Positions 7,392-61,829 of a DNA stretch of 64,000 bases are shown piece by piece. The notes beneath the pieces were generated by a model. That model ran no database searches, was not told where the DNA came from, and saw nothing but the letters and a program-made list of their open reading frames with translations. Position 1 is the stretch's first letter; each line of letters begins with the position of its first letter. Location of the stretch: positions 26,069-90,068 of the forward strand of contig SDNP01000009.1 in NCBI GenBank assembly GCA_004524445.1. Reading direction: 5' to 3'. The position numbers were made by a program, and so were the translations under genes. The stretch comes from Candidatus Thorarchaeota archaeon (GTDB lineage: Archaea; Asgardarchaeota; Thorarchaeia; Thorarchaeales; Thorarchaeaceae).

Positions 7392-8348
7392 ATGAACGGC
7401 CCTGTTCAGGATGAGTTGACGGAAACATTGAAGCCTTCAGTTGGAACTGCAACAGCATTTGTTCCTGGACACATCACTGGGTTTTTCAAAATCCATGATG
7501 CCAGCAGCAATCTCTTGGAGAGAGGGTCAACAGGTGCTGGATTTTGTATCACAGCGGGAACCGTCACCACTATAGAATTAGTGGAACAAGACGAACATGA
7601 TGTATTAGTGACCTATAATGGTGAGCGCATAAAGGCAGAAATCACAGAAATGGTGGTTGAACGAGTGTCAGAATTATATGGAAAGAGATTCTCAGCTAAG
7701 GTAGAGCATGACTCAGAGCTACCCATAGGTGTCGGGTATGGTGCATCAGGAGCTGGTGCATTGGGTACGGCCCTTGCTATGAACTACATCCTGGATTCTG
7801 AAATGACACCCCAAGTAGCTGCACAATATGCTCATTACGCCGAGGTCGCAAAGCAAGGCGGCCTTGGTGATGTGATTGCTCAGTTCACTGGCGGGATGGA
7901 AATTCGAACACGTCCCGGTGCGCCTGGAATCGGAGAGATTGATCCCTTCAGATGCGAGTCGCCCGTCAGTGTAGTCTTGGCTGGTTCAACTGGTCTGGAG
8001 ACTAAGTCGGTGCTAAGCAATGAGGGATATAGACGCCGGATTAATGAAAGAGGAAGCCAGCTAGTCGGTGGCATGCGAGATAGGCCCACCTGTGAACAAT
8101 TCATTAAGGCTTCAAGAGATTTCGCCCATTTCACGGGTCTCATGAGCGATAGAATAGACGCAGCTCTGTCAGAATTAGATAATGCCAACCTGAAGAATTC
8201 TAGCATGGTGATGTTGGGAGATTCGCTGTTTTGTCTATGTTCGCAGAGCGACGTGGATAGAGCTCGCAATATACTGACTGATTATTGGATGCCCGAGGAG
8301 ATGCTCGTAACAACAATTGCTAACAGGGGAGGAGGTATACTACATTGA
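7392..8348 (+). CDS. Pantoate kinase (GHMP family); start may be TTG at 7416
   Basis: FVPGHITGFF, GSTGAG, LPIGVGYGASGAGALG, GLGDVIAQ, PGAPG; stop overlaps the start of the next gene. Confidence 0.92.
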   Translation: MNGPVQDELTETLKPSVGTATAFVPGHITGFFKIHDASSNLLERGSTGAGFCITAGTVTTIELVEQDEHDVLVTYNGERIKAEITEMVVERVSELYGKRFSAKVEHDSELPIGVGYGASGAGALGTALAMNYILDSEMTPQVAAQYAHYAEVAKQGGLGDVIAQFTGGMEIRTRPGAPGIGEIDPFRCESPVSVVLAGSTGLETKSVLSNEGYRRRINERGSQLVGGMRDRPTCEQFIKASRDFAHFTGLMSDRIDAALSELDNANLKNSSMVMLGDSLFCLCSQSDVDRARNILTDYWMPEEMLVTTIANRGGGILH

Positions 8349-9142
8349 CAGAGATAGAGATTCCATCCGACCACCCCCGAAGAGTATCTCTAGAAACACG
8401 TGAGAGAATAATTGAGGGGCACCAAGATAATATTGTAGCTACTGCAGGTCTGCTAGCTCATGGACGCGGAGAAGCGTTCGATTATCTAATTGGAGAAAAG
8501 ACTAATGACCAAGCTATGAAAGCCATCGATGCAGCAGTGGCGTCTATGCTTTTGGCGGATCACCCAGTGATTAGCGTTAATGGTAATGCGTGTTCCCTGG
8601 TACCAGAAGAGCTTGTGGAATTATCAGAGATTTGTGGAGCGCCACTAGAAATCAATCTTTTCTATTATCGAAAGGAACGTGAGGATGCGATTGTAACGGC
8701 CCTAAAGAAAGCAGGAGCAAAAGAGATTCTTGGCACTATTGAACGACCATCAGAGACTATTCCCGAGCTGAGCAGTAATCGGCGCAAAGTGGACTCTGAT
8801 GGAATAGGCTCTGCAGATTTAGTAGTTGTTCCACTTGAAGATGGAGACCGAACGGAGGCTCTGAAACGAATCGGCAAGTTCGTGGTCACAATTGATTTGA
8901 ATCCTATGAGCCGTACGTCCGTTTATTCCGATATTACTATCGTTGATAACATAGTTCGAGCAATGCCTTTGATGGTTGAACGTTCACGTGATTTGAAACA
9001 CGAACCTAGAGAGAAACTAGAAGCGATAGTCAAGGCTTTTGATAATAGGAAGAATCTAGAAACCGCTATCGAAAGAATTATTGAACACTTAGAAAAGCAA
9101 GCGGCTGGTTTCGCCAACATCACAAAGGAGGAAAATAGATGA
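8345..9142 (+). CDS. 4-phosphopantoate--beta-alanine ligase (phosphopantothenate synthetase)
   Basis: IPSDHPR, AHGRGEAFDYLIGE, PVISVNGN, VPLEDGDR, IDLNP. Confidence 0.95.
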   Translation: MTEIEIPSDHPRRVSLETRERIIEGHQDNIVATAGLLAHGRGEAFDYLIGEKTNDQAMKAIDAAVASMLLADHPVISVNGNACSLVPEELVELSEICGAPLEINLFYYRKEREDAIVTALKKAGAKEILGTIERPSETIPELSSNRRKVDSDGIGSADLVVVPLEDGDRTEALKRIGKFVVTIDLNPMSRTSVYSDITIVDNIVRAMPLMVERSRDLKHEPREKLEAIVKAFDNRKNLETAIERIIEHLEKQAAGFANITKEENR

Positions 9143-10128
9143 ACATTGTCATAATGGGTGCTGGAGCCATAGGAAGCCTATTTGGTGGTATGATGGAGAT
9201 GGCACAGCCTGGTGCTGTAACGCTGATTGCACGTCAGCCCCATGTTGAGGTAATCAAGAAGAACGGACTTCAGATAAAGGGTGTTGTGGGTGAAACTGTG
9301 TTGGATATCAACGCGGAAACAAGTGCCAATGGCATCGCGGAAGCTGACGTTGTTTTCATAACTACAAAAGCATATGATTCAGTTGCAGCTGCACGAAAAA
9401 TAAAGCACTTGATTGATAATGGAGCATATGTTGTAGTTGTTCAGAACGGTCTAGGTACTGAAAACCAGATTGCGAAGGTCCTTGGAAGTAGGAGAGTGCT
9501 CAGAGCAACCACATGTATGGGCGCTATCTTAGAGTCTCCGGGAGTCGTGAATGCGACTGGAGAAGGAATCACAGAAATTGGGTCACACTACCCTGAAAAC
9601 AGTGAACTGATTAAGATGACCGTTGAGCTCATCAATGACGCCAATATCAAAACACGGGGTAGTGAAAATATTGAGGGTGTAGTATGGACCAAGACTATTG
9701 TCAATTGTGGTATAAACCCAATTGGTGCAATCACTGATATGAAGAACGGTGAGGTCTACAGCAGTGCTGTACTGAGAGAACTCGTCATTAAACTAGTGGA
9801 AGAAACCGTTGAAGTTGTAAAGGCACTTGGAATAGAACTAACCACAACCGACCCCATTCGTTATACACTTGGTACAGCAAAAGCAACTGCCAATAATACG
9901 AACTCAATGCTTCAGGACATAAAGGCGCGCAAGAGAACCGAGATTGAAACGATTACTGGGGCAGTGGTTAAAATGGCGCATAAACTCGGTTTGGAAACTC
10001 CAACAAGTGAGGCCGTGTATGCGCTCGTCAAGGCCATTGAAGCGAAATACTTGGAGAACGAAGATGTTCCTGATGAAGATATTACAATGGCGACAGATGA
10101 ACTGATAAAGACACTGTCTACACATTAA
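9139..10128 (+). CDS. panE: 2-dehydropantoate 2-reductase
   Basis: GAGAIGS, TKAYD, QNGLG, WTKTIVN, NSMLQD, TEIETITG. Confidence 0.93.
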   Translation: MNIVIMGAGAIGSLFGGMMEMAQPGAVTLIARQPHVEVIKKNGLQIKGVVGETVLDINAETSANGIAEADVVFITTKAYDSVAAARKIKHLIDNGAYVVVVQNGLGTENQIAKVLGSRRVLRATTCMGAILESPGVVNATGEGITEIGSHYPENSELIKMTVELINDANIKTRGSENIEGVVWTKTIVNCGINPIGAITDMKNGEVYSSAVLRELVIKLVEETVEVVKALGIELTTTDPIRYTLGTAKATANNTNSMLQDIKARKRTEIETITGAVVKMAHKLGLETPTSEAVYALVKAIEAKYLENEDVPDEDITMATDELIKTLSTH

Positions 10129-10798
10129 ACCAGGATTTTGCAGTCTTATAAGACGACATTGCTGACCTCTGAGCATTAGTAAGCATTGGACGCATATGGC
10201 CCGGTAATGCGGTACTGAATTCAATTTTTGTTAGGATTTCTAGGGATTCGACTAGTTGCTGTGGATTTCCAGTTGGAAAATCAACCCTACCAAAGCTCCC
10301 TCCTGCGAATAGCGTATCCCCCGTAAACATCACTCCTTCCTCCTTGAAATAGAAGCAGCAACTTCCCTCAGAGTGCCCCGGAGTATGTATGACTGTTGCC
10401 TGCAATTCACCCAGTTTCAATTCATCTCCATCTCTAAAGGGCCGGTCAATCTTCATCTTTGGAAGCTTAACACCAAAGGTGCTTGATAAGGTCAGTTGCA
10501 TGTCGCCCGCGTTTATGCGATTTGCCTCTCTTTCGTGGAGATGAAGCACAACATCGGTCCTGTCCATTATTGGTGCGACGCCTCCAATATGATCTATATG
10601 ACTGTGTGTAAGAGCAATATCTGTGATATCCTCAATCGAATAGTCCAATGATAGAAGTGCTTTCTCAAGATTTTGCAGATGTGCCCCTGTTCCGGAATCG
10701 ATTAGAACCAGTCTATCTCCCGACTCAATTAAACCAATATTTGAGTCGAAGGTACTACTGACTTGGAGATGAATTCCTTCTGTTATCTGTTGAAACAT
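10118..10798 (-). CDS. MBL-fold metallo-hydrolase (glyoxalase II-like)
   Basis: THSHIDHIGG, TPGHS, FTGDTLF, PGH. Confidence 0.9.
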   Translation of the reverse strand: MFQQITEGIHLQVSSTFDSNIGLIESGDRLVLIDSGTGAHLQNLEKALLSLDYSIEDITDIALTHSHIDHIGGVAPIMDRTDVVLHLHEREANRINAGDMQLTLSSTFGVKLPKMKIDRPFRDGDELKLGELQATVIHTPGHSEGSCCFYFKEEGVMFTGDTLFAGGSFGRVDFPTGNPQQLVESLEILTKIEFSTALPGHMRPMLTNAQRSAMSSYKTAKSWFNV

Positions 10799-10802
10799 TA
10801 AG

Positions 10803-11927
10803 TCACCTCATTTGCTCCATCAGGAGGTCAATATCATCTTTTGTGTTGTAAAAATGCGGGGATACCCGCAATCTTCCATTGCGAACAGAGCAGTGGATAT
10901 TTTCCTTCAGCAAAGAATTATGAAGCATTTCAACATGGGATGGCTTGCAGGATACAATAGGTGAACGGTTTCTTTCTTCAAACCTGTAGTATTCTATGTC
11001 GGATTCATCCAAACATGTTCTAAGATAATCCGACACCTCAAGAGCTGCTTCTTCCCGTTTCCTGGAAGGAATATCTAGCAGCAAATCGAGGGATTTCAGG
11101 AATCCAACATACGCCATCATGGCTGGTGACCCTACCTCGAAGCGTCTGGCATCATCAAGAGGCTTTCTCATAGCATAACCAAAATCCTCCATATTCTTTA
11201 CTCCCCACCATCCAAGATACGCAGGAGTCACTATATCAAGGAGCTCCTTTCTAAGAAAGAGAAATCCAGCTCCGATCGGTCCAATCAACCATTTGGCTGC
11301 TTGAGCTGTTGCGAAATCCACTCCCATTTCTTGAAGGTCTATGTCTTTCCATCCTGCAGCTTGAATTATGTCAACAGCAATGAAGCCGCCCATTTCATGC
11401 ACAGCATCAGCCAGCATTTCTATATTGGGAACATATCCTGAGGAAAATTGAACCAAACTAATTGCCACAACACTTGTATTCTCATCAATAGCATTCAAGA
11501 AATCATCATCAGAAACTGCTCCCTGTTGTGACCTAACTACTTTGAGTTCTATATTGTTTCTTTTTGCAATGTACTGCCAGGGAATATAGTTTGCCGGAAA
11601 TTCAAGGTCACAAATTACGATATTAGAATCTTTGGGGTAATCCAATCCATTTGCAAAGGTATTCAGGCCGGTTGAAGTATTGGGCACGAATCCATACTCT
11701 TCACGAGTTCCGCCTAGTAACTTGGCCAAGTTACTTCTTATTATGTCAAATGTGGCAAGGGTCTTCTCAAAATCCCCTTTAGCCGCTACTCTACTTTGAA
11801 GATATTCTCCTACTGCCTTAACGGTTCTTTGGGGCATGATGCCTGTGGAGGCATTATTGAGATAGACCATTGTATTCAGAGTCGGGAACTCAGTCTTGCG
11901 GAGCTTCTCAACAAACGATGATGTCAT
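10803..11927 (-). CDS. Class V aminotransferase-fold PLP enzyme
   Basis: YLNNAS, LEFPAN, VDIIQAAG, AKWLIGPIGAG, RVSPHFYN. Confidence 0.85.
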   Translation of the reverse strand: MTSSFVEKLRKTEFPTLNTMVYLNNASTGIMPQRTVKAVGEYLQSRVAAKGDFEKTLATFDIIRSNLAKLLGGTREEYGFVPNTSTGLNTFANGLDYPKDSNIVICDLEFPANYIPWQYIAKRNNIELKVVRSQQGAVSDDDFLNAIDENTSVVAISLVQFSSGYVPNIEMLADAVHEMGGFIAVDIIQAAGWKDIDLQEMGVDFATAQAAKWLIGPIGAGFLFLRKELLDIVTPAYLGWWGVKNMEDFGYAMRKPLDDARRFEVGSPAMMAYVGFLKSLDLLLDIPSRKREEAALEVSDYLRTCLDESDIEYYRFEERNRSPIVSCKPSHVEMLHNSLLKENIHCSVRNGRLRVSPHFYNTKDDIDLLMEQMR

Positions 11928-12025
11928 GATATGGCGAACTCAATAAATTGGCTGATAAAGCTCACTGATTACATTCACCTAAAGTTTAAGTCTATCCTAG
12001 CATTTTTGTGTGACTGGAGAGAGGT

Positions 12026-12916
12026 TTGTCCCTATTCCGTAGAATCATTGCCCGACTAAAAGGGAAGAAGGAGGAAAAGGAAGAAAAATCAGAGGACACC
12101 ACGACCTCAGAAACTACGCAGCGAAGAGATATGGACAAACCAAAAAAAGTCGAAAAACCAACCCCAGAATCCAAGGAAGTCCCTGCTAAGGCAGAGCCTC
12201 CGAAAAGGAAAGTGTATGAGGATTCAACTCCTCCCGATGGTAGCATTCTTGCATCATCAGCAAGCTTTAGGGTCAATACTGAAGAAACAAAGAACCTGGC
12301 TGAAGAAGCAAAAATAGGGGAACATTCTACAGCTGAGATGGTTCCAGGATATGCTTTGAAGCGAGATGATCAGGGCAGAATCCACATCAAGATTGTGTTC
12401 TATGGTCCATCTTTATCAGGAAAGACTACAGCCCTTAGATGGTTGTTTTCTCACGTTAGATCTCTATCCAAAGGTAAGCTTGTCGAAATTGCAGACGATT
12501 TGGGACGAACCACTTTCTTTGACTTTGTACCTGTTACAGCTAGCGAGAAAATAGTATTTGATGTCTTCACCGTAGCAGGTCAGAGGAGGCACGCGCGTCA
12601 GAGAATCAATGTCCTTCGCGATGCTGATGGCATAATATTCATGGCTGACTCTCGACCCGAGATGACAAATGAGAATCTGGCGTCTTTGGAAGAGCTAAAG
12701 ATTGCACTGGGGACTGATAGGATAGCTAACATGCCCATTGTTGTTTCATTGAATAAACGTGACCTTCCAAATGCTTTGCCGGTTGACTATATGGTCGATC
12801 TGTTGGATGTTGATGGATACCCTGTCTTTCCCACAATAGCCACCGAAGGCAAGAACCTTCTGAGAATGTTTCAACGCATTCTTAGAGACTCTCTAATCTT
12901 TCGCGTAGGGCTCTAA
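12026..12916 (+). CDS. MglA-like small GTPase with N-terminal amphipathic and low-complexity extension
   Basis: KIVFYGPSLSGKTT, RTTFFDF, TVAGQ, NKRD, IATEG. Confidence 0.85.
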   Translation: MSLFRRIIARLKGKKEEKEEKSEDTTTSETTQRRDMDKPKKVEKPTPESKEVPAKAEPPKRKVYEDSTPPDGSILASSASFRVNTEETKNLAEEAKIGEHSTAEMVPGYALKRDDQGRIHIKIVFYGPSLSGKTTALRWLFSHVRSLSKGKLVEIADDLGRTTFFDFVPVTASEKIVFDVFTVAGQRRHARQRINVLRDADGIIFMADSRPEMTNENLASLEELKIALGTDRIANMPIVVSLNKRDLPNALPVDYMVDLLDVDGYPVFPTIATEGKNLLRMFQRILRDSLIFRVGL

Positions 12917-27589: not shown

Positions 27590-28492
27590 TCAATCTCTAT
27601 GCAATGCAAATTCACAACTCTTATTTCCCATAGCTCTGCATGAAGTTTCTTCCACAGAGATGCTAGGATTTCTCAATACCCCTTCAATAAACCCACTGAA
27701 AAAGTGACAAATGGGTCTATTGGCAGTCTTGCCGCGGCATACTGGGCATAACACGATATCATAGACTTCTTTATCACTGTCAAACTTCGTCACAGAGATT
27801 TCGTTCAACAAGTCTAGGAGCTCACTCTGTTGTATTACGAGCTTATCTTTGTACTCTGCCTTTGCAATCCGGTATCCAGCATATCTGCCAATGGTTCTAG
27901 CAACCAGGTCTTCAAGTTCTGGTTGATTTCCGAAGTAATTGTTCAGTTCTCTAACCAGTTTTATTGTATCCTCCGGGAAGTTTTGGATTATATCAAGTCC
28001 TAAATTCAAAACCATATAGAGCTGAGAGAGGGGAATGACCGAAGGTAGAAACTGAATAATCTCCGGATAATCGTTTCTAATCCTCATAAGGTGGTTATAC
28101 AGATCACGAATATTCGATTTGAAACGCTGATACCTCTCTCCTCGCACATACGCTTCTTCTTTCTGAAGGTGTCCTTCAAACTCCTGGAAGAACTGATTTT
28201 CAATTTGCTTTACCAGAATCTTAGCGAATTGATCGTACTCCTGTTTCTCCACGTGAACGACAAAGAGAACAGGGTCTCTGGAGCTGTAGACCAAGAGCCC
28301 ATTACCGGATTCTATTGCTTTCAGTTCTTCATGACCTAATTCTTTTACGAGATTATTAATGGCGCTTGTGAAGCCTCCAAATAATTCCTCAAATGATTGT
28401 CGATTATCCCTTGCAGACCCATCCAAATTAACACTTACAAGTGGAATTCCAGCCAAATGGACGATATATACAGTCCTTACAATACCATTCAT
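27590..28492 (-). CDS. Longin-like domain fused to a C-terminal V4R domain
   Basis: N-terminal VYIVHLAGIPL, LFGGFTSAI, VLFVVHV; C-terminal CPVC, ICHFFSGFIEG, VEETSCRAMGNKSCEF. Confidence 0.75.
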   Translation of the reverse strand: MNGIVRTVYIVHLAGIPLVSVNLDGSARDNRQSFEELFGGFTSAINNLVKELGHEELKAIESGNGLLVYSSRDPVLFVVHVEKQEYDQFAKILVKQIENQFFQEFEGHLQKEEAYVRGERYQRFKSNIRDLYNHLMRIRNDYPEIIQFLPSVIPLSQLYMVLNLGLDIIQNFPEDTIKLVRELNNYFGNQPELEDLVARTIGRYAGYRIAKAEYKDKLVIQQSELLDLLNEISVTKFDSDKEVYDIVLCPVCRGKTANRPICHFFSGFIEGVLRNPSISVEETSCRAMGNKSCEFALHRD

Positions 28493-28863
28493 CTGCTTTC
28501 TTCTCCAAAAAGACGTCGTGAGAAGTCGTAAAATTGACCGAAGGCAATGACGAGTAGGAATATGCTGATTAGAAACAACCAAAGTCTGGTTGGCTTCCAG
28601 ATATAATCATAAAACTCTCCCGGAGTGAACCAAAACCACTCATCAAATGCATCCATTGCAGAGCTTATGATTCCAAAAACCGAAGAAACGAGCAACGGAT
28701 AGAAAGTTCTCTTTCTTTCAATCATTGGATATCTTCTTGCTGCATATATGATCACAACAAGTAGCAGCATGAATGCAAACACTGTAAACAAATCCAAAAA
28801 TGCCTTCACAATCTCTAAAATGCCGCTGGGAGGATGAAACTCGAAGGTAACTCCTTGCATCAA
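28489..28863 (-). CDS. Small 3-TM membrane protein
   Basis: Three hydrophobic segments; ATGA overlap with the downstream gene. Confidence 0.75.
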   Translation of the reverse strand: MMQGVTFEFHPPSGILEIVKAFLDLFTVFAFMLLLVVIIYAARRYPMIERKRTFYPLLVSSVFGIISSAMDAFDEWFWFTPGEFYDYIWKPTRLWLFLISIFLLVIAFGQFYDFSRRLFGEESR

Positions 28864-29205
28864 TTATAACCCCCATTGCTTTGCGCCATAGTCGGCAATC
28901 CGATATACCCCATAGGCGAATAGAAGCAGTCCTATCACGAATGTCGAACCATCAAAAAGATTGAGAACATCAACGAGCGAATCATCGAATTGCAGCGTAT
29001 CCAAGGCATCGAAAATTGCATGAAACATCAGGAGTGCAATGCCTGCCACAATAGACGTCCAACCCTCTGAGGTGATTCGTGGGTGCTTCTTTCTGATTTT
29101 GTATGCAAACAATGTGGCTACAAAAAGGCCTAGGGCTATCAAAGACTCCATGCTAATCAGGAACAGATCCTCTGGGTCTAAAAGGCCTATCTGCATGGCA
29201 AGCAC
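28864..29205 (-). CDS. Small 3-TM membrane protein, apparent paralog of the adjacent gene
   Basis: Three hydrophobic segments; shares KKHPRI/RRYPMI and DALD/DAFD motifs. Confidence 0.75.
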   Translation of the reverse strand: MLAMQIGLLDPEDLFLISMESLIALGLFVATLFAYKIRKKHPRITSEGWTSIVAGIALLMFHAIFDALDTLQFDDSLVDVLNLFDGSTFVIGLLLFAYGVYRIADYGAKQWGL

Positions 29206-29364
29206 TGAATATCAACTATTAGAAGCGGGAATTAAATCTTCCTGAGGAGAATAAGGAAATTAGTGACATGCAATCCTTGCTCTATGAGGTAACGAATACC
29301 TATTGATTGCTACGAGAGAAAATCCTTTCTTATGCTGGCTTATTTTTCGGAGGGTGAACAGACC

Positions 29365-30159
29365 ATGGACCTAGAATACTTCTCAGACGAGGAGTATCAC
29401 CGAGCCTTTATTGACTTCGGTGGAGTCCGAGAAGAAATTGCTCGTCTTTTATTCCATAGCCTTGGGATGAATACAGAAATAATCCTAGATATTCCTGCTG
29501 GCCATGGCTACCTTTCCTTTGAAGTTGCGAAACGATTCAAACAGAGTCGTGTCTTGGGTATAGGCCTCCCAAATGATTGCACCGCGTATCTGAGAATTCG
29601 GAATCAAAACAAATTCTCGCCTTTCTATGATAGAGTCGATTTCACTGCCTGTGATGCAACGAGATTGGCTTTGCCTGCTGGCTCTTGTGATTTAATAGTT
29701 AACTTCCTTGGACTCGAAGATATAAGGATGACAAGGGGTGAAACCGGAGTACTTCAGACACTATCCGAGTTCGCTAGAGTGCTAAGAGGCGGTGCAATAC
29801 TTGAGCTTACTATCGCAGAATATGGCGATACACCTGAGGAGGAAATTGCCAAATCTGTTTGGGAGAGCATAGGATTGAATGCTGTTTTCCAGCCTATCAA
29901 CTTCTATAGTGATAAGCTGAACGAACTTGATTTTAAGCTGACAAAGAAGAGAAAAATGTTGTATCCGAAAAAGATGAAAGCTAACCAGGCGAGAGAAGAG
30001 ATTGAGTTTGCTTGTTTGAATGCCCCCAAGATATACAAGTCATTCGGCGTGAATTCAGTTTCATTTGATGAGATATGGTCCGAGTTCGGTTCTCTGATTG
30101 AAACACACGGAATGGCATACTGGTCAAAATTGTGGGTATTAATTTTTCAGAAGGTATGA
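29365..30159 (+). CDS. Class I SAM-dependent methyltransferase
   Basis: ILDIPAGHG, CDATRL, CDLIV, RVLRGG; start after GGAGGGTGA. Confidence 0.8.
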   Translation: MDLEYFSDEEYHRAFIDFGGVREEIARLLFHSLGMNTEIILDIPAGHGYLSFEVAKRFKQSRVLGIGLPNDCTAYLRIRNQNKFSPFYDRVDFTACDATRLALPAGSCDLIVNFLGLEDIRMTRGETGVLQTLSEFARVLRGGAILELTIAEYGDTPEEEIAKSVWESIGLNAVFQPINFYSDKLNELDFKLTKKRKMLYPKKMKANQAREEIEFACLNAPKIYKSFGVNSVSFDEIWSEFGSLIETHGMAYWSKLWVLIFQKV

Positions 30160-30265
30160 TAGGACGAAAGTCTGTTCTTCTGATCATGCCAAATAAGGAG
30201 GCAAGATGTTACCCATGCAATTCTTAATTAGCAGTGCTACCTTATTCTCGGCGAGTTGCGATAGA

Positions 30266-31180
30266 ATGTTACGTAAGAACGAACTGAATTTCCTTCAAGT
30301 GGATGCTTTCACAGATACCCGTTTTGGGGGAAATCCCGCTATTGTTGTGTTAGATGCTGACTCTCTTGATGATGAACAGATGTATATGATTGCAGAAGAG
30401 ATGAGCTCACGGGAAACTGTCTTTGTTTGTAAATCATCTGTCGCTGACTTCTGTTTTCGATTTCTCACGTCAAAGGGTGAAATTGACTTTTCAGGACATT
30501 CTGCAATTGCTGCCTTTCATGCACTAGTTGAGGAGGGCAAAGCAGAAGTGGTATACGATGTGACAATGCTCTCATTGGAAACCAAATCTGGGGTTCTGCA
30601 GGTTGAGATCGTGAAGAATGAAACCACCCGCACCCATGAAGTCCAAATAACTCATTCACGACCCGAGTTCATGAACACTTATGATACTAAAGCATATGCG
30701 GAGGCGCTCGGACTCAATCTTGTCGATATAATGTCTTTGTATCCTATACAGACAGTGAGTACTGGGACTCCTCATTTGGTTATCCCATTGATGAGTCTTG
30801 ATGCCTTAGAACGGGTCAAACCGAACTTGGATTTGATTGAGAGTTTATCCGCTGATGGTGACTATGACTCAATCATTGCATTCACGAAAGAAACGCATGA
30901 AGTAACTTCTGATGCGCATCTCAAACACTTTGCTCCTGCGCTTGGTGTTGCCGAAGAGCCGGCATCGGGGGTTGCTTCAGGATGTTTGGGAAGCTATCTT
31001 ATTCGGCATGGTATTATTGACTCTACAAATCGTGTTTCAACTATTGTTCTAGAGCAAGGATACCATCTGGGCCGTCCAAGTAAGGTGATAGTGGAAGTAA
31101 TCGGAGATAGAGAGGGAATCGAACAAGTCAAAGTGAGCGGCACAGCAGTCACTGTGATGAAAGGTGAAATATACATCTAG
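30266..31180 (+). CDS. PhzF family isomerase
   Basis: QVDAFT..FGGNPA, ETVF, SGHS, STGTPH, EQG..GRPS. Confidence 0.9.
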   Translation: MLRKNELNFLQVDAFTDTRFGGNPAIVVLDADSLDDEQMYMIAEEMSSRETVFVCKSSVADFCFRFLTSKGEIDFSGHSAIAAFHALVEEGKAEVVYDVTMLSLETKSGVLQVEIVKNETTRTHEVQITHSRPEFMNTYDTKAYAEALGLNLVDIMSLYPIQTVSTGTPHLVIPLMSLDALERVKPNLDLIESLSADGDYDSIIAFTKETHEVTSDAHLKHFAPALGVAEEPASGVASGCLGSYLIRHGIIDSTNRVSTIVLEQGYHLGRPSKVIVEVIGDREGIEQVKVSGTAVTVMKGEIYI

Positions 31181-59342: not shown

Positions 59343-59473
59343 GCATTACCCATGAGAAGGCTTACTCATCAAGTTACCGCCCCAATTAAAGAGAGGAGAA
59401 CTGACGAAGAACTTTAATAACTGTGAACAACCCCCAACATGCTAAGCGCTGCCAACTCATAGGTGGAAATACA

Positions 59474-60040
59474 ATGGTTACAGCCCTGTTTAAGATAGTT
59501 CTCATGGGCGACGGCTCGGTAGGCAAGACCAGTCTGAGGCGTACGTACATGGGTGAAGGCTTCAAGGCTCAGTATATGATCACTATCGGTGCTGATTTTG
59601 CAGTCAAGAAGATGCAGTTGGAAGGCGGGCACGACGTCAGCATTCAGATTTGGGACCTGGCAGGTCAGGAGCATTTCAAGAGCGTTAGGTCAACATTCTA
59701 CAAAGGGGCACAGGGTGCACTTGCGGTCTACTCCACAGTTGAGAGGCAGTCATACGAGAACATCAAGAACTGGTTGGACGAGTGCTGGACAAATGCAGGG
59801 AAGAAAATTCCCATAGTTCTTATTGGTAATAAAATCGATCTTAGACAGCAGTTCGAGGACAATCCAGCCATGAGACAGACAATTGTTACCACTGAGGAGG
59901 GGCAGCGGCTGGCTGATGATATAGCATCAAACGGCGTGCATACGTCATTCATCGAAACGTCTGCTAAAACCGGTGAAAATGTTGAAGCATCCTTTCTGGA
60001 GCTAGCAATAAAGATTCTTGAGGCTGGCGGCTTGGCCTAA
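59474..60040 (+). CDS. Rab-like small GTPase
   Basis: GDGSVGKTS, TIGADF, IWDLAGQ, FYKGA, GNKID, ETSAK. Confidence 0.93.
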   Translation: MVTALFKIVLMGDGSVGKTSLRRTYMGEGFKAQYMITIGADFAVKKMQLEGGHDVSIQIWDLAGQEHFKSVRSTFYKGAQGALAVYSTVERQSYENIKNWLDECWTNAGKKIPIVLIGNKIDLRQQFEDNPAMRQTIVTTEEGQRLADDIASNGVHTSFIETSAKTGENVEASFLELAIKILEAGGLA

Positions 60041-61295: not shown

Positions 61296-61829
61296 CTAAT
61301 CTACTTGGACTGATTCCACCATGACTTCACAAAGATTCGTGTAGGCATCTTCTACATTCTTTCCCGTAAGGGCACTTGATTCAACATAGATGTGATCGTG
61401 CTTTTCTGCCCACTCTTTCCCTTCTTCGGTTGTGACGACCCGGCTCTCTTCCAGATCGACTTTGTTTGCCACAACTATCAGGGGGATCTCGCGTCCGAGG
61501 TTCTTGAAGCACTCATCCTTCCAGTTTTTGATATTGAGAAATGTTCTTCTCCTGGTCACATCATATACAAGAAGCCCGCCTCTGGCACCCCTATAGAACC
61601 CCTGCCTTACTACTTCAAATCTTGGCTGTCCCGCCAGATCCCATACCTGCAGAGTCACCGTTGCGTCCCTTTCGGGCATCTCGACTTTCTTAATGGCAAA
61701 ATCAGACCCAATGGTCCGCTTGTAGTCGGATTGGAAATGTTGTTGTGTGAATCGAACAGTAAGTGCGGTCTTTCCGACAGCACCATCGCCCAACATGACA
61801 ATCTTGAAGCGGTATTCAGCTGACATCAC
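61296..61829 (-). CDS. Rab-like small GTPase
   Basis: GDGAVGKT, TIGSDF, VWDLAGQ, FYRGA, LVYDVT, NKVD, ESSAL. Confidence 0.93.
   Translation of the reverse strand: MMSAEYRFKIVMLGDGAVGKTALTVRFTQQHFQSDYKRTIGSDFAIKKVEMPERDATVTLQVWDLAGQPRFEVVRQGFYRGARGGLLVYDVTRRRTFLNIKNWKDECFKNLGREIPLIVVANKVDLEESRVVTTEEGKEWAEKHDHIYVESSALTGKNVEDAYTNLCEVMVESVQVD

Follow-up and report, generated by a model that had tools for sequence, protein, structure and literature searches.

This report concerns a 64,000-nucleotide stretch of DNA (the window; contig SDNP01000009.1, positions 26,069 to 90,068) from a Candidatus Thorarchaeota archaeon, taken from an assembly of 2.79 Mb in 64 contigs that is 90% complete, and in particular a gene on its minus strand for a protein that we call longin-V4R after its two domains. 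In the computed models and alignments, this chain combines a longin domain (residues 1-141), a proline-rich connector and a cysteine-rich V4R/Bet3-fold domain (residues 155-300), and it is encoded together with two related membrane proteins, TM-A and TM-B, each with three transmembrane (TM) segments. The translationally coupled and conserved membrane pair is the best functional clue at the locus and was absent from a preliminary description of this DNA. We consider it somewhat more likely than not that longin-V4R is the soluble component, on the cytoplasmic side, of a three-protein membrane module specific to Asgard archaea.

The cassette in the window

The three genes are tightly packed (Table 1). 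TM-A and TM-B abut at zero gap, and the ATG of longin-V4R overlaps the TGA stop of the upstream TM-B gene as ATGA (gaagaaagcagATGa). In the family alignment the N-termini of 36 homologues align on the ATG at 28492. With this overlap and these shared N-termini, the open reading frame (ORF) of the preliminary description proved to be a real gene. A TTG start at 28582, giving 330 residues, was ruled out, as the homologues begin at the ATG and the extension runs into TM-B. A database search returned 40 full-length homologues of about 300 residues with 44-90% identity, the named ones mostly from Candidatus Thorarchaeota; full-length relatives labelled Heimdall or Hodarchaeales share 38-40% identity with the window protein.

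Neither TM-A nor TM-B matched a family in Pfam or NCBIfam, and an ESM Atlas search with TM-B and an Atlas fold search with the whole longin-V4R model returned no informative family. From the charge distribution (positive-inside rule) both proteins are predicted to be oriented N-out/C-in, with a basic loop between TM1 and TM2. In both, TM2 and TM3 have conserved acidic and aromatic motifs at their outer ends, and the invariant residues there are H62, D66, D69 and D85 in TM-A and D71, D74 and E75 in TM-B. Across six loci the membrane proteins are 39-66% identical to those of the window, a conservation at least equal to that of longin-V4R. The two are likely paralogues, because they share a (K/R)x(H/Y)P ... 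DxxD layout and because hidden Markov model searches cross-match, the TM-A profile hitting TM-B ORFs at 1e-5 to 3e-8. An hhalign comparison of the two, built from four sequences per protein, reached a probability of only 9%. A 223-residue protein, P0213, was considered as a TM-A/TM-B fusion and rejected: it is a TM-B relative with an extremely acidic C-terminal tail of about 120 residues.

Table 1. Coordinates of the features discussed; positions refer to the window unless a locus label (L) precedes them.
Feature	Position	Strand	Description
longin-V4R gene	27590..28492	-	300 residues plus stop; third and last gene of the cassette; based on ORF, ATGA overlap, homologues and structure model
TM-B	28489..28863	-	124 residues, three hydrophobic segments; stop overlaps the longin-V4R start; predicted contacts 46-50 and 117-122
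TM-A	28864..29205	-	110-113 residues, three hydrophobic segments; start GTG 29205 or ATG 29196; predicted contact 110-112
Longin domain	28070..28492	-	Residues 1-141, b1 b2 a1 b3 b4 b5 a2 a3; based on DSSP order and structural alignment
Pro-rich connector	28031..28069	-	Residues 142-154 with P143, P150 and P154; between the two structurally aligned ranges
V4R/Bet3-fold domain	27593..28030	-	Residues 155-300; based on Pfam V4R and structural alignment; predicted docking surface 173-181, 230-234 and 247-254
Cys cluster C249-x2-C252 ... C262 ... C285 ... C293	27614..27748	-	Putative Zn site; based on conservation and alignment to Thor-TRAPPC3 and MJ1460
Ras-family gene	59423-60040	+	E 1e-48
Ras-family gene	61296-61829	-	E 1e-52
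LV2 paralogue and related entries	L017:3412-4449, L022:7920-8864, L055:515-1435; also L006:3276-4181

Divergent from the cassette lies a class-I methyltransferase gene (Methyltransf_25, 29332-30159, plus strand), followed by a gene for a PhzF-family protein (30206-31180, plus strand). A similar methyltransferase occurs near the module at two other loci (L005, L007) and PhzF at a third (L010), which looks like weak residual synteny. In some Thorarchaeota-like genomes a second, paralogous longin-V4R (LV2) is found just upstream of the cassette, in the order LV2, sometimes one gene, TM-A, TM-B and LV1. LV2 retains the predicted docking residues described below; the window genome has a single longin-V4R copy. 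One genome of this family also has, at a distance of about 5 kb from the module, a stand-alone longin-like ORF of 195 residues (L023:14180-14764, minus strand) that matches the profile of the N-terminal domain at 6.6e-7.

Two TRAPP-type folds in one chain

An AlphaFold2 (AF2) model of longin-V4R built on the family alignment had a mean predicted local distance difference test (pLDDT) score of 84 and a predicted template-modelling score of 0.80. Secondary structure assigned to it by DSSP comprised strands at 5-12 and 17-22, a helix at 34-51, strands at 58-62, 65-72 and 75-81, and helices at 84-109 and 118-141. The resulting order over residues 5-141, b-b-a-b-b-b-a-a, is the longin topology; the N-terminal helix that a roadblock domain would have is missing. 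In VIA structural alignments the Sec22b longin domain superposed on the N-terminal domain with Z 14.3 and a root-mean-square deviation of 2.7 A over 119 residues, followed by VAMP7 (Z 13.9), SRalpha-SRX (13.2), synbindin/TRAPPC4 (12.6) and sedlin (11.7). Foldseek with the whole model also ranked the Sec22b longin first (E 6e-4, template-modelling score 0.71 on the target), with Bet3, MJ1460 and Thor-TRAPPC3 next. In a scan of 48,161 representative chains, independent of Foldseek, the top 50 were all longin or V4R/Bet3 proteins, and those aligned to the N-terminal domain were all longins; the roadblock proteins MglB and MglC reached Z 7.8. The longin assignment of the preliminary description, made by eye, was therefore correct.

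At the level of sequence the domain is less distinct. Pfam gave no longin-type match for the window protein, even below threshold, and among 37 family members the sub-threshold matches were to Fuz_longin_1 (13/37, best 0.0016), Longin (6/37) and SRP-alpha_N (3/37). Because these profiles stay below the gathering score, membership in the longin group, as judged from the model, holds at the level of the fold only. A Pfam MetOD1 match at residues 80-136 was taken as spurious, since in relatives MetOD1 covers the V4R region.

The two domains are joined by a connector of about 12 residues whose three prolines (P143, P150 and P154) are invariant or nearly so in the family alignment. Where the preliminary description had placed a helical linker, helices are indeed present, but they belong mostly to a2 and a3 of the longin domain (84-141) and to the N-terminal helices of the V4R domain (155-232).

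Pfam V4R (PF02830) matched residues 244-298 with E 6.5e-14 and 52.2 bits against a cut-off of 31, and it matched all 37 family members. In the model residues 155-300 form four helices followed by a b-b-a-b-b unit. VIA alignment of this domain gave Z 12.6 for MopR, 12.4 for PoxR, 11.8 and 11.6 for Bet3 (2cfh and 1wc8) and 11.7 for Thor-TRAPPC3 (7yh3), so that the Bet3 fold and the prokaryotic V4R proteins PoxR and MopR tie as structural matches. V4R and Bet3 have an established common ancestry (PMC2253512). The AF2 model, Foldseek, VIA and the scan of representative chains thus agree with the earlier proposal that both core fold types of TRAPP, longin and V4R/Bet3, are united in one chain.

Profile comparison separates the two possibilities for the C-terminal domain. 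The Pfam TRAPP profile (PF04051) had no match at E<=1 for the window protein and was weak in the family (5 of 37 members, best 0.014), while a TRAPPC3-like protein of the same genome itself scored 38.9 bits. With hhalign, the domain matched the stand-alone V4R protein of the genome with 95.7% probability (E 9e-9) and its TRAPPC3-like protein with 55% (E 1e-4). On these two grounds the domain classifies, by profile, as V4R rather than as Bet3/TRAPP. The family profile run against Protein Data Bank sequences gave non-significant matches only (MJ1460, E 0.037; Thor-TRAPPC3, E 0.62).

The genes for these comparison proteins form a cluster elsewhere in the genome (contig C10, about 7400-12400; L011:4392-8399), which encodes the stand-alone V4R of 183 residues, the TRAPPC3-like protein of 157 residues and a weaker one of 168 residues (26.8 bits). 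They interleave with winged helix-turn-helix (HTH) and MarR-like proteins, a context that hints at regulation rather than trafficking.

All five cysteines of longin-V4R fall within residues 249-293. C249, C262, C285 and C293 are invariant in the family alignments and C252 is nearly so, which, with the Pfam match and the Bet3-type fold, bears out the cysteine-bearing V4R domain of the preliminary description. C249, C252, C262 and C293 align with cysteines of Thor-TRAPPC3 (7YH2), and C285 and C293 with the V4R cysteine pair of MJ1460. Bet3 carries an acylated cysteine in its helical half, lining a lipid channel. A counterpart is absent from longin-V4R, because its first cysteine is residue 249. 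Thor-TRAPPC3 coordinates Zn by four cysteines (PMC10933270).

Distribution of the module and its predicted complex

The cassette of TM-A, TM-B and longin-V4R was found at six loci with unrelated flanks, in assemblies labelled Thor-, 'Loki'-, Heimdall- and Hodarchaeales. Database clusters numbered 58 for TM-A and 65 for TM-B; the named ones were all from Asgard archaea, with adjacent locus tags for the two proteins. Among 400 genomes surveyed across the phylum, longin-V4R was detected in 40, TM-B in 46 and both in 37. Nine genomes that initially appeared to have TM-B only carried a divergent longin-V4R next door, and such divergent copies match the family profile in both domains. At 41 further loci the three genes stood side by side whenever the contig extended far enough; the single exception was L038, in which a TM gene was not found. 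Hodarchaeales-labelled genomes carry the module, as do single-contig genomes of other Asgard families. Three TM-B matches contain one in-frame stop each (TGA in G073:C27:26521-26880, TAA in G016:C1:3005563-3005919 and G165:C175:14242-14580), which could reflect decay, sequencing error or a match running beyond the end of the gene.

We modelled the three chains together, each supplied as an alignment, along with three controls. The complex reached an interaction prediction score from aligned errors (ipSAE) of 0.66, and the best control 0.02. Of 80 solved complexes, 58 reached that mark, as did 2 of 110 mismatched pairs; these counts are only a rough guide for three chains with custom alignments. 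The runs agreed in at least 88% of contacts, and the pLDDT of the partners was at least 77. In the model, V4R residues 173-178, 181, 230-234, 247-248, 250 and 253-254 contact residues 46-50 and 117-122 of TM-B and 110-112 of TM-A. Two features that did not enter the modelling, conservation and predicted topology, are consistent with it. Residues at least 90% conserved make up 8 of the 17 V4R contacts and 47 of the 300 residues overall (hypergeometric p 0.0016); the conserved contacts include P173, T176, I177, R181, E231, S233, P250 and R253. On the TM-B side they include the invariant P46 and R117. All contacts of the membrane proteins lie on the predicted cytoplasmic face, as needed for a partner that has neither a signal peptide nor a TM segment. 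The longin domain makes no contacts with the TM pair and remains free. We know of no similar solved complex. The model supports binding of longin-V4R to TM-A and TM-B and does not show it.

Functional reading and relation to known systems

Taken together, the cassette and the predicted complex argue for longin-V4R as the soluble subunit of a membrane module. TM-A and TM-B are predicted to insert N-out/C-in, and the V4R domain to dock on TM-B, at its basic TM1-TM2 loop and C-terminal tail, and on the C-terminal tail of TM-A, so that the longin domain would stay unbound at the membrane surface. The cysteines of the V4R domain may form a structural Zn site, and this domain may be the part that senses a small ligand or state, coupled to the TM pair; the Asp, Glu and aromatic motifs at the outer face of that pair would serve to bind a cation or an external ligand. 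An output or assembly platform would then be provided by the longin domain, which may homodimerise, as modelled for the Heimdall fusion described below, and may engage a Ras-like GTPase in some lineages.

Several points weigh against this reading. The module is accessory rather than core, because its distribution is patchy: about 46 of the 400 genomes carry it, with 14 of 85 in the family to which the window belongs and 2 of 135 in the largest family. The complex is a model and not a measurement, and the job was unlike those on which the tool was calibrated. Helix a1 of the longin domain (residues 27-60) was modelled at low confidence, with pLDDT 49-62. The proposed ligand, metal and oligomeric state are carried over from relatives and would hold to the extent that these are a guide. 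Finally, the TM proteins match no known family, so either a sensor or a channel or transporter is possible.

This last point leads to an alternative that we regard as rather unlikely, in which TM-A and TM-B would together be a small channel or transporter for a cation or solute. Longin-V4R would only gate or regulate it from the cytoplasm, in response to a ligand, to redox state or to Zn, and its longin domain would do no more than dimerise. The carboxylates that both membrane proteins keep invariant where TM2 and TM3 reach the outer face would suit such a function, as would the finding that these proteins are more conserved than the soluble subunit. V4R is a ligand-sensing module in PoxR, MopR and DmpR, its cysteines are redox-sensitive in MsvR, and longin-V4R has a weak NCBIfam match to MsvR. 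However, searches of Pfam and NCBIfam with both membrane proteins, and of the ESM Atlas with TM-B, revealed no similarity to any transporter family, six TM helices in total with short loops are small for a transporter, and gating alone leaves unexplained why a complete longin fold is retained in every lineage.

A second alternative follows the preliminary description, which had seen in the protein a regulator of small GTPases and a Rosetta-stone link to the origin of TRAPP. The fused longin and Bet3-like folds would be an exchange factor or direct regulator of Rab/Ras-like GTPases, and the fusion would record an ancestral association of the TRAPP core; we find this quite unlikely. A variant that we find just as unlikely makes the protein part of a longin platform, anchored in the membrane and gated by a ligand, to which a Ras/Rab-like GTPase would be recruited or by which it would be activated; the fusion would preserve the ancestral pairing that gave rise to TRAPP's longin-Bet3 core. 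In favour, the chain has both TRAPP core folds, and longin and roadblock dimers are platforms for GTPases (PMC10933270). Against this stand the V4R rather than TRAPP profile of the C-terminal domain, its helical half devoid of a cysteine where Bet3 has its palmitoylated one, an N-terminal domain nearer to the longins of SNAREs and SRX (Z up to 14.3) than to those of TRAPP (12.6-10.8), and the separate TRAPPC3-like genes of the genome, clustered with HTH proteins.

Gene neighbourhood bears on this alternative in both directions. The two Rab-like genes of the window that had been put forward as partners are true members of the Ras family, on opposite strands with 1.3 kb between them, but their distance from longin-V4R is 31 kb, in a genome with about 23 Ras-family matches. 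Out to about 8 kb from the module, no Ras-like ORF was found in the window, in 14 other loci from its family or in families f8, f11, f13, f21, f22 and f2. In three divergent families, by contrast, seven loci in all have a Ras-family gene no more than about 3 kb from the module, and the outer flanks of the 41 further loci gave zero Ras matches. In f27 (two genomes) a Ras gene, a gene for a 269-residue helical protein and longin-V4R follow each other on the same strand, the last with a 4-nucleotide overlap. In f17 the cassette of one genome is immediately preceded by an N-terminally extended Ras gene, and in a second genome Ras is 3 kb away; in f30 (three genomes) Ras is the convergent neighbour. 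With one Ras gene per 63-240 kb in these genomes, about 0.7 lineages with Ras beside the module would be expected by chance and 3 were seen, a small count in which related genomes are not independent. For this reason the Ras neighbours are suggestive of a GTPase link and no stronger, and the GTPase-regulator inference of the preliminary description finds suggestive backing in the divergent families and none in the window's own.

The GTPase-linked lineages carry extra parts without an assigned family, namely the 269-residue all-helical protein between Ras and longin-V4R (L015:5287-6096, minus strand) and the N-terminal extension, of about 180 residues, of a Ras protein (L045:9993-11051, minus strand). 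Separately, contig C48 of the window genome encodes two adjacent proteins of 427 and 303 residues (L002:661-1944 and L002:2015-2926, both minus strand) with sub-threshold Fuz_longin_1, Longin and Robl_LC7 matches at their N-termini and C-terminal hints of winged helices, including HTH_NPRL3, an architecture that recalls NPRL2/3 of GATOR1; a third longin-like protein is encoded on contig C57 (L004:967-1800, minus strand).

A role in lipid handling, with a V4R pocket held at the membrane by the TM pair extracting or carrying a lipid or isoprenoid like the palmitate channel of Bet3, would agree with the Bet3-fold similarity (Z 11.8), the predicted docking at the membrane surface and the ligand binding or transport proposed by Tran et al. 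for the cavities of Thor-TRAPPC3 (PMC10933270), but is very improbable given that a cysteine is lacking at the Bet3-like acylation position and that no lipid-metabolism genes are conserved beside the module at the six loci.

TRAPP, a key activator of Rab in eukaryotic trafficking, is assembled from longin platforms and Bet3-type subunits, and Asgard archaea own the parts. The union of both folds in one chain with membrane partners turns a loose 'eukaryote-like domain' into a defined, predicted three-protein complex that is experimentally tractable, and the three lineages with a Ras-like gene beside the module name the first GTPases to try. Should the complex turn out instead to be a sensor or a regulator of a transporter, it would be a warning not to assume that longin and V4R genes of Asgard archaea encode trafficking machinery.

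Among known systems, the N-terminal domain shares its topology with the longins of Sec22b, VAMP7, SRalpha (SRX), TRAPPC4 (synbindin), TRAPPC2 (sedlin) and Fuzzy/Mon1, over 108-132 residues at 2.3-3.4 A and Z 11.7-14.3. It differs from them in a sequence likeness that stays below threshold and in lacking a SNARE motif or a GTPase or DENN context, and it is not assignable to one longin subfamily. A functional analogy may be drawn with Ragulator, a roadblock platform held on the membrane by LAMTOR1: in both, a platform of roadblock/longin type would be tethered by a dedicated membrane anchor. Here, unlike in Ragulator, the anchor is a predicted pair of three-TM proteins bound through V4R, and a GTPase partner is only hypothetical.

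The C-terminal domain resembles the prokaryotic V4R sensors PoxR, MopR, DmpR and MJ1460 in its Pfam match and structure (Z 12.6 and 12.4), and C285 and C293 correspond to the cysteine pair of MJ1460. In contrast to these sensors it is fused to neither an AAA+ nor an HTH output domain, and it has an additional CxxC and membrane-protein partners. The fold is equally that of Bet3 and of Thor-TRAPPC3 (7YH2, 7YH3), and the CxxC...C...C of the latter aligns. The extra cysteine C285, the missing PF04051 match and the cysteine-free helical half set the domain apart from both, and whereas Thor-TRAPPC3 and Bet3 form stand-alone dimers, the window protein is fused to a longin domain and predicted to be docked on TM proteins.

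The closest precedent is the Heimdallarchaeota longin-TRAPPC3 fusion of Tran, Akil, Senju & Robinson (2024), for which an AF2 homodimer model was presented (Supplementary Fig. 10g; PMC10933270). It has the same domain order as the window protein, longin followed by a TRAPPC3/V4R fold; we liken the two by this order and not by accession. Tran et al. read the fusion as a sign of functional interaction among longin, TRAPPC3 and GTPases (PMC10933270). Neither the architecture nor the 'Rosetta stone' argument is therefore new: the fusion of both fold types stands in the window protein also, but the link to TRAPP was already in print for Heimdall, and the C-terminal domain here is V4R and not TRAPP by profile. 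The published account (PMC10933270) comprised one sequence, one sentence and one supplementary panel, without membrane partners or distribution, whereas the window protein is of the Thorarchaeota type. Among the papers searched, we found none on the TM partners or the distribution of the longin-V4R family. What is new here are the conserved membrane partners of this family and the specific docking surface predicted for them.

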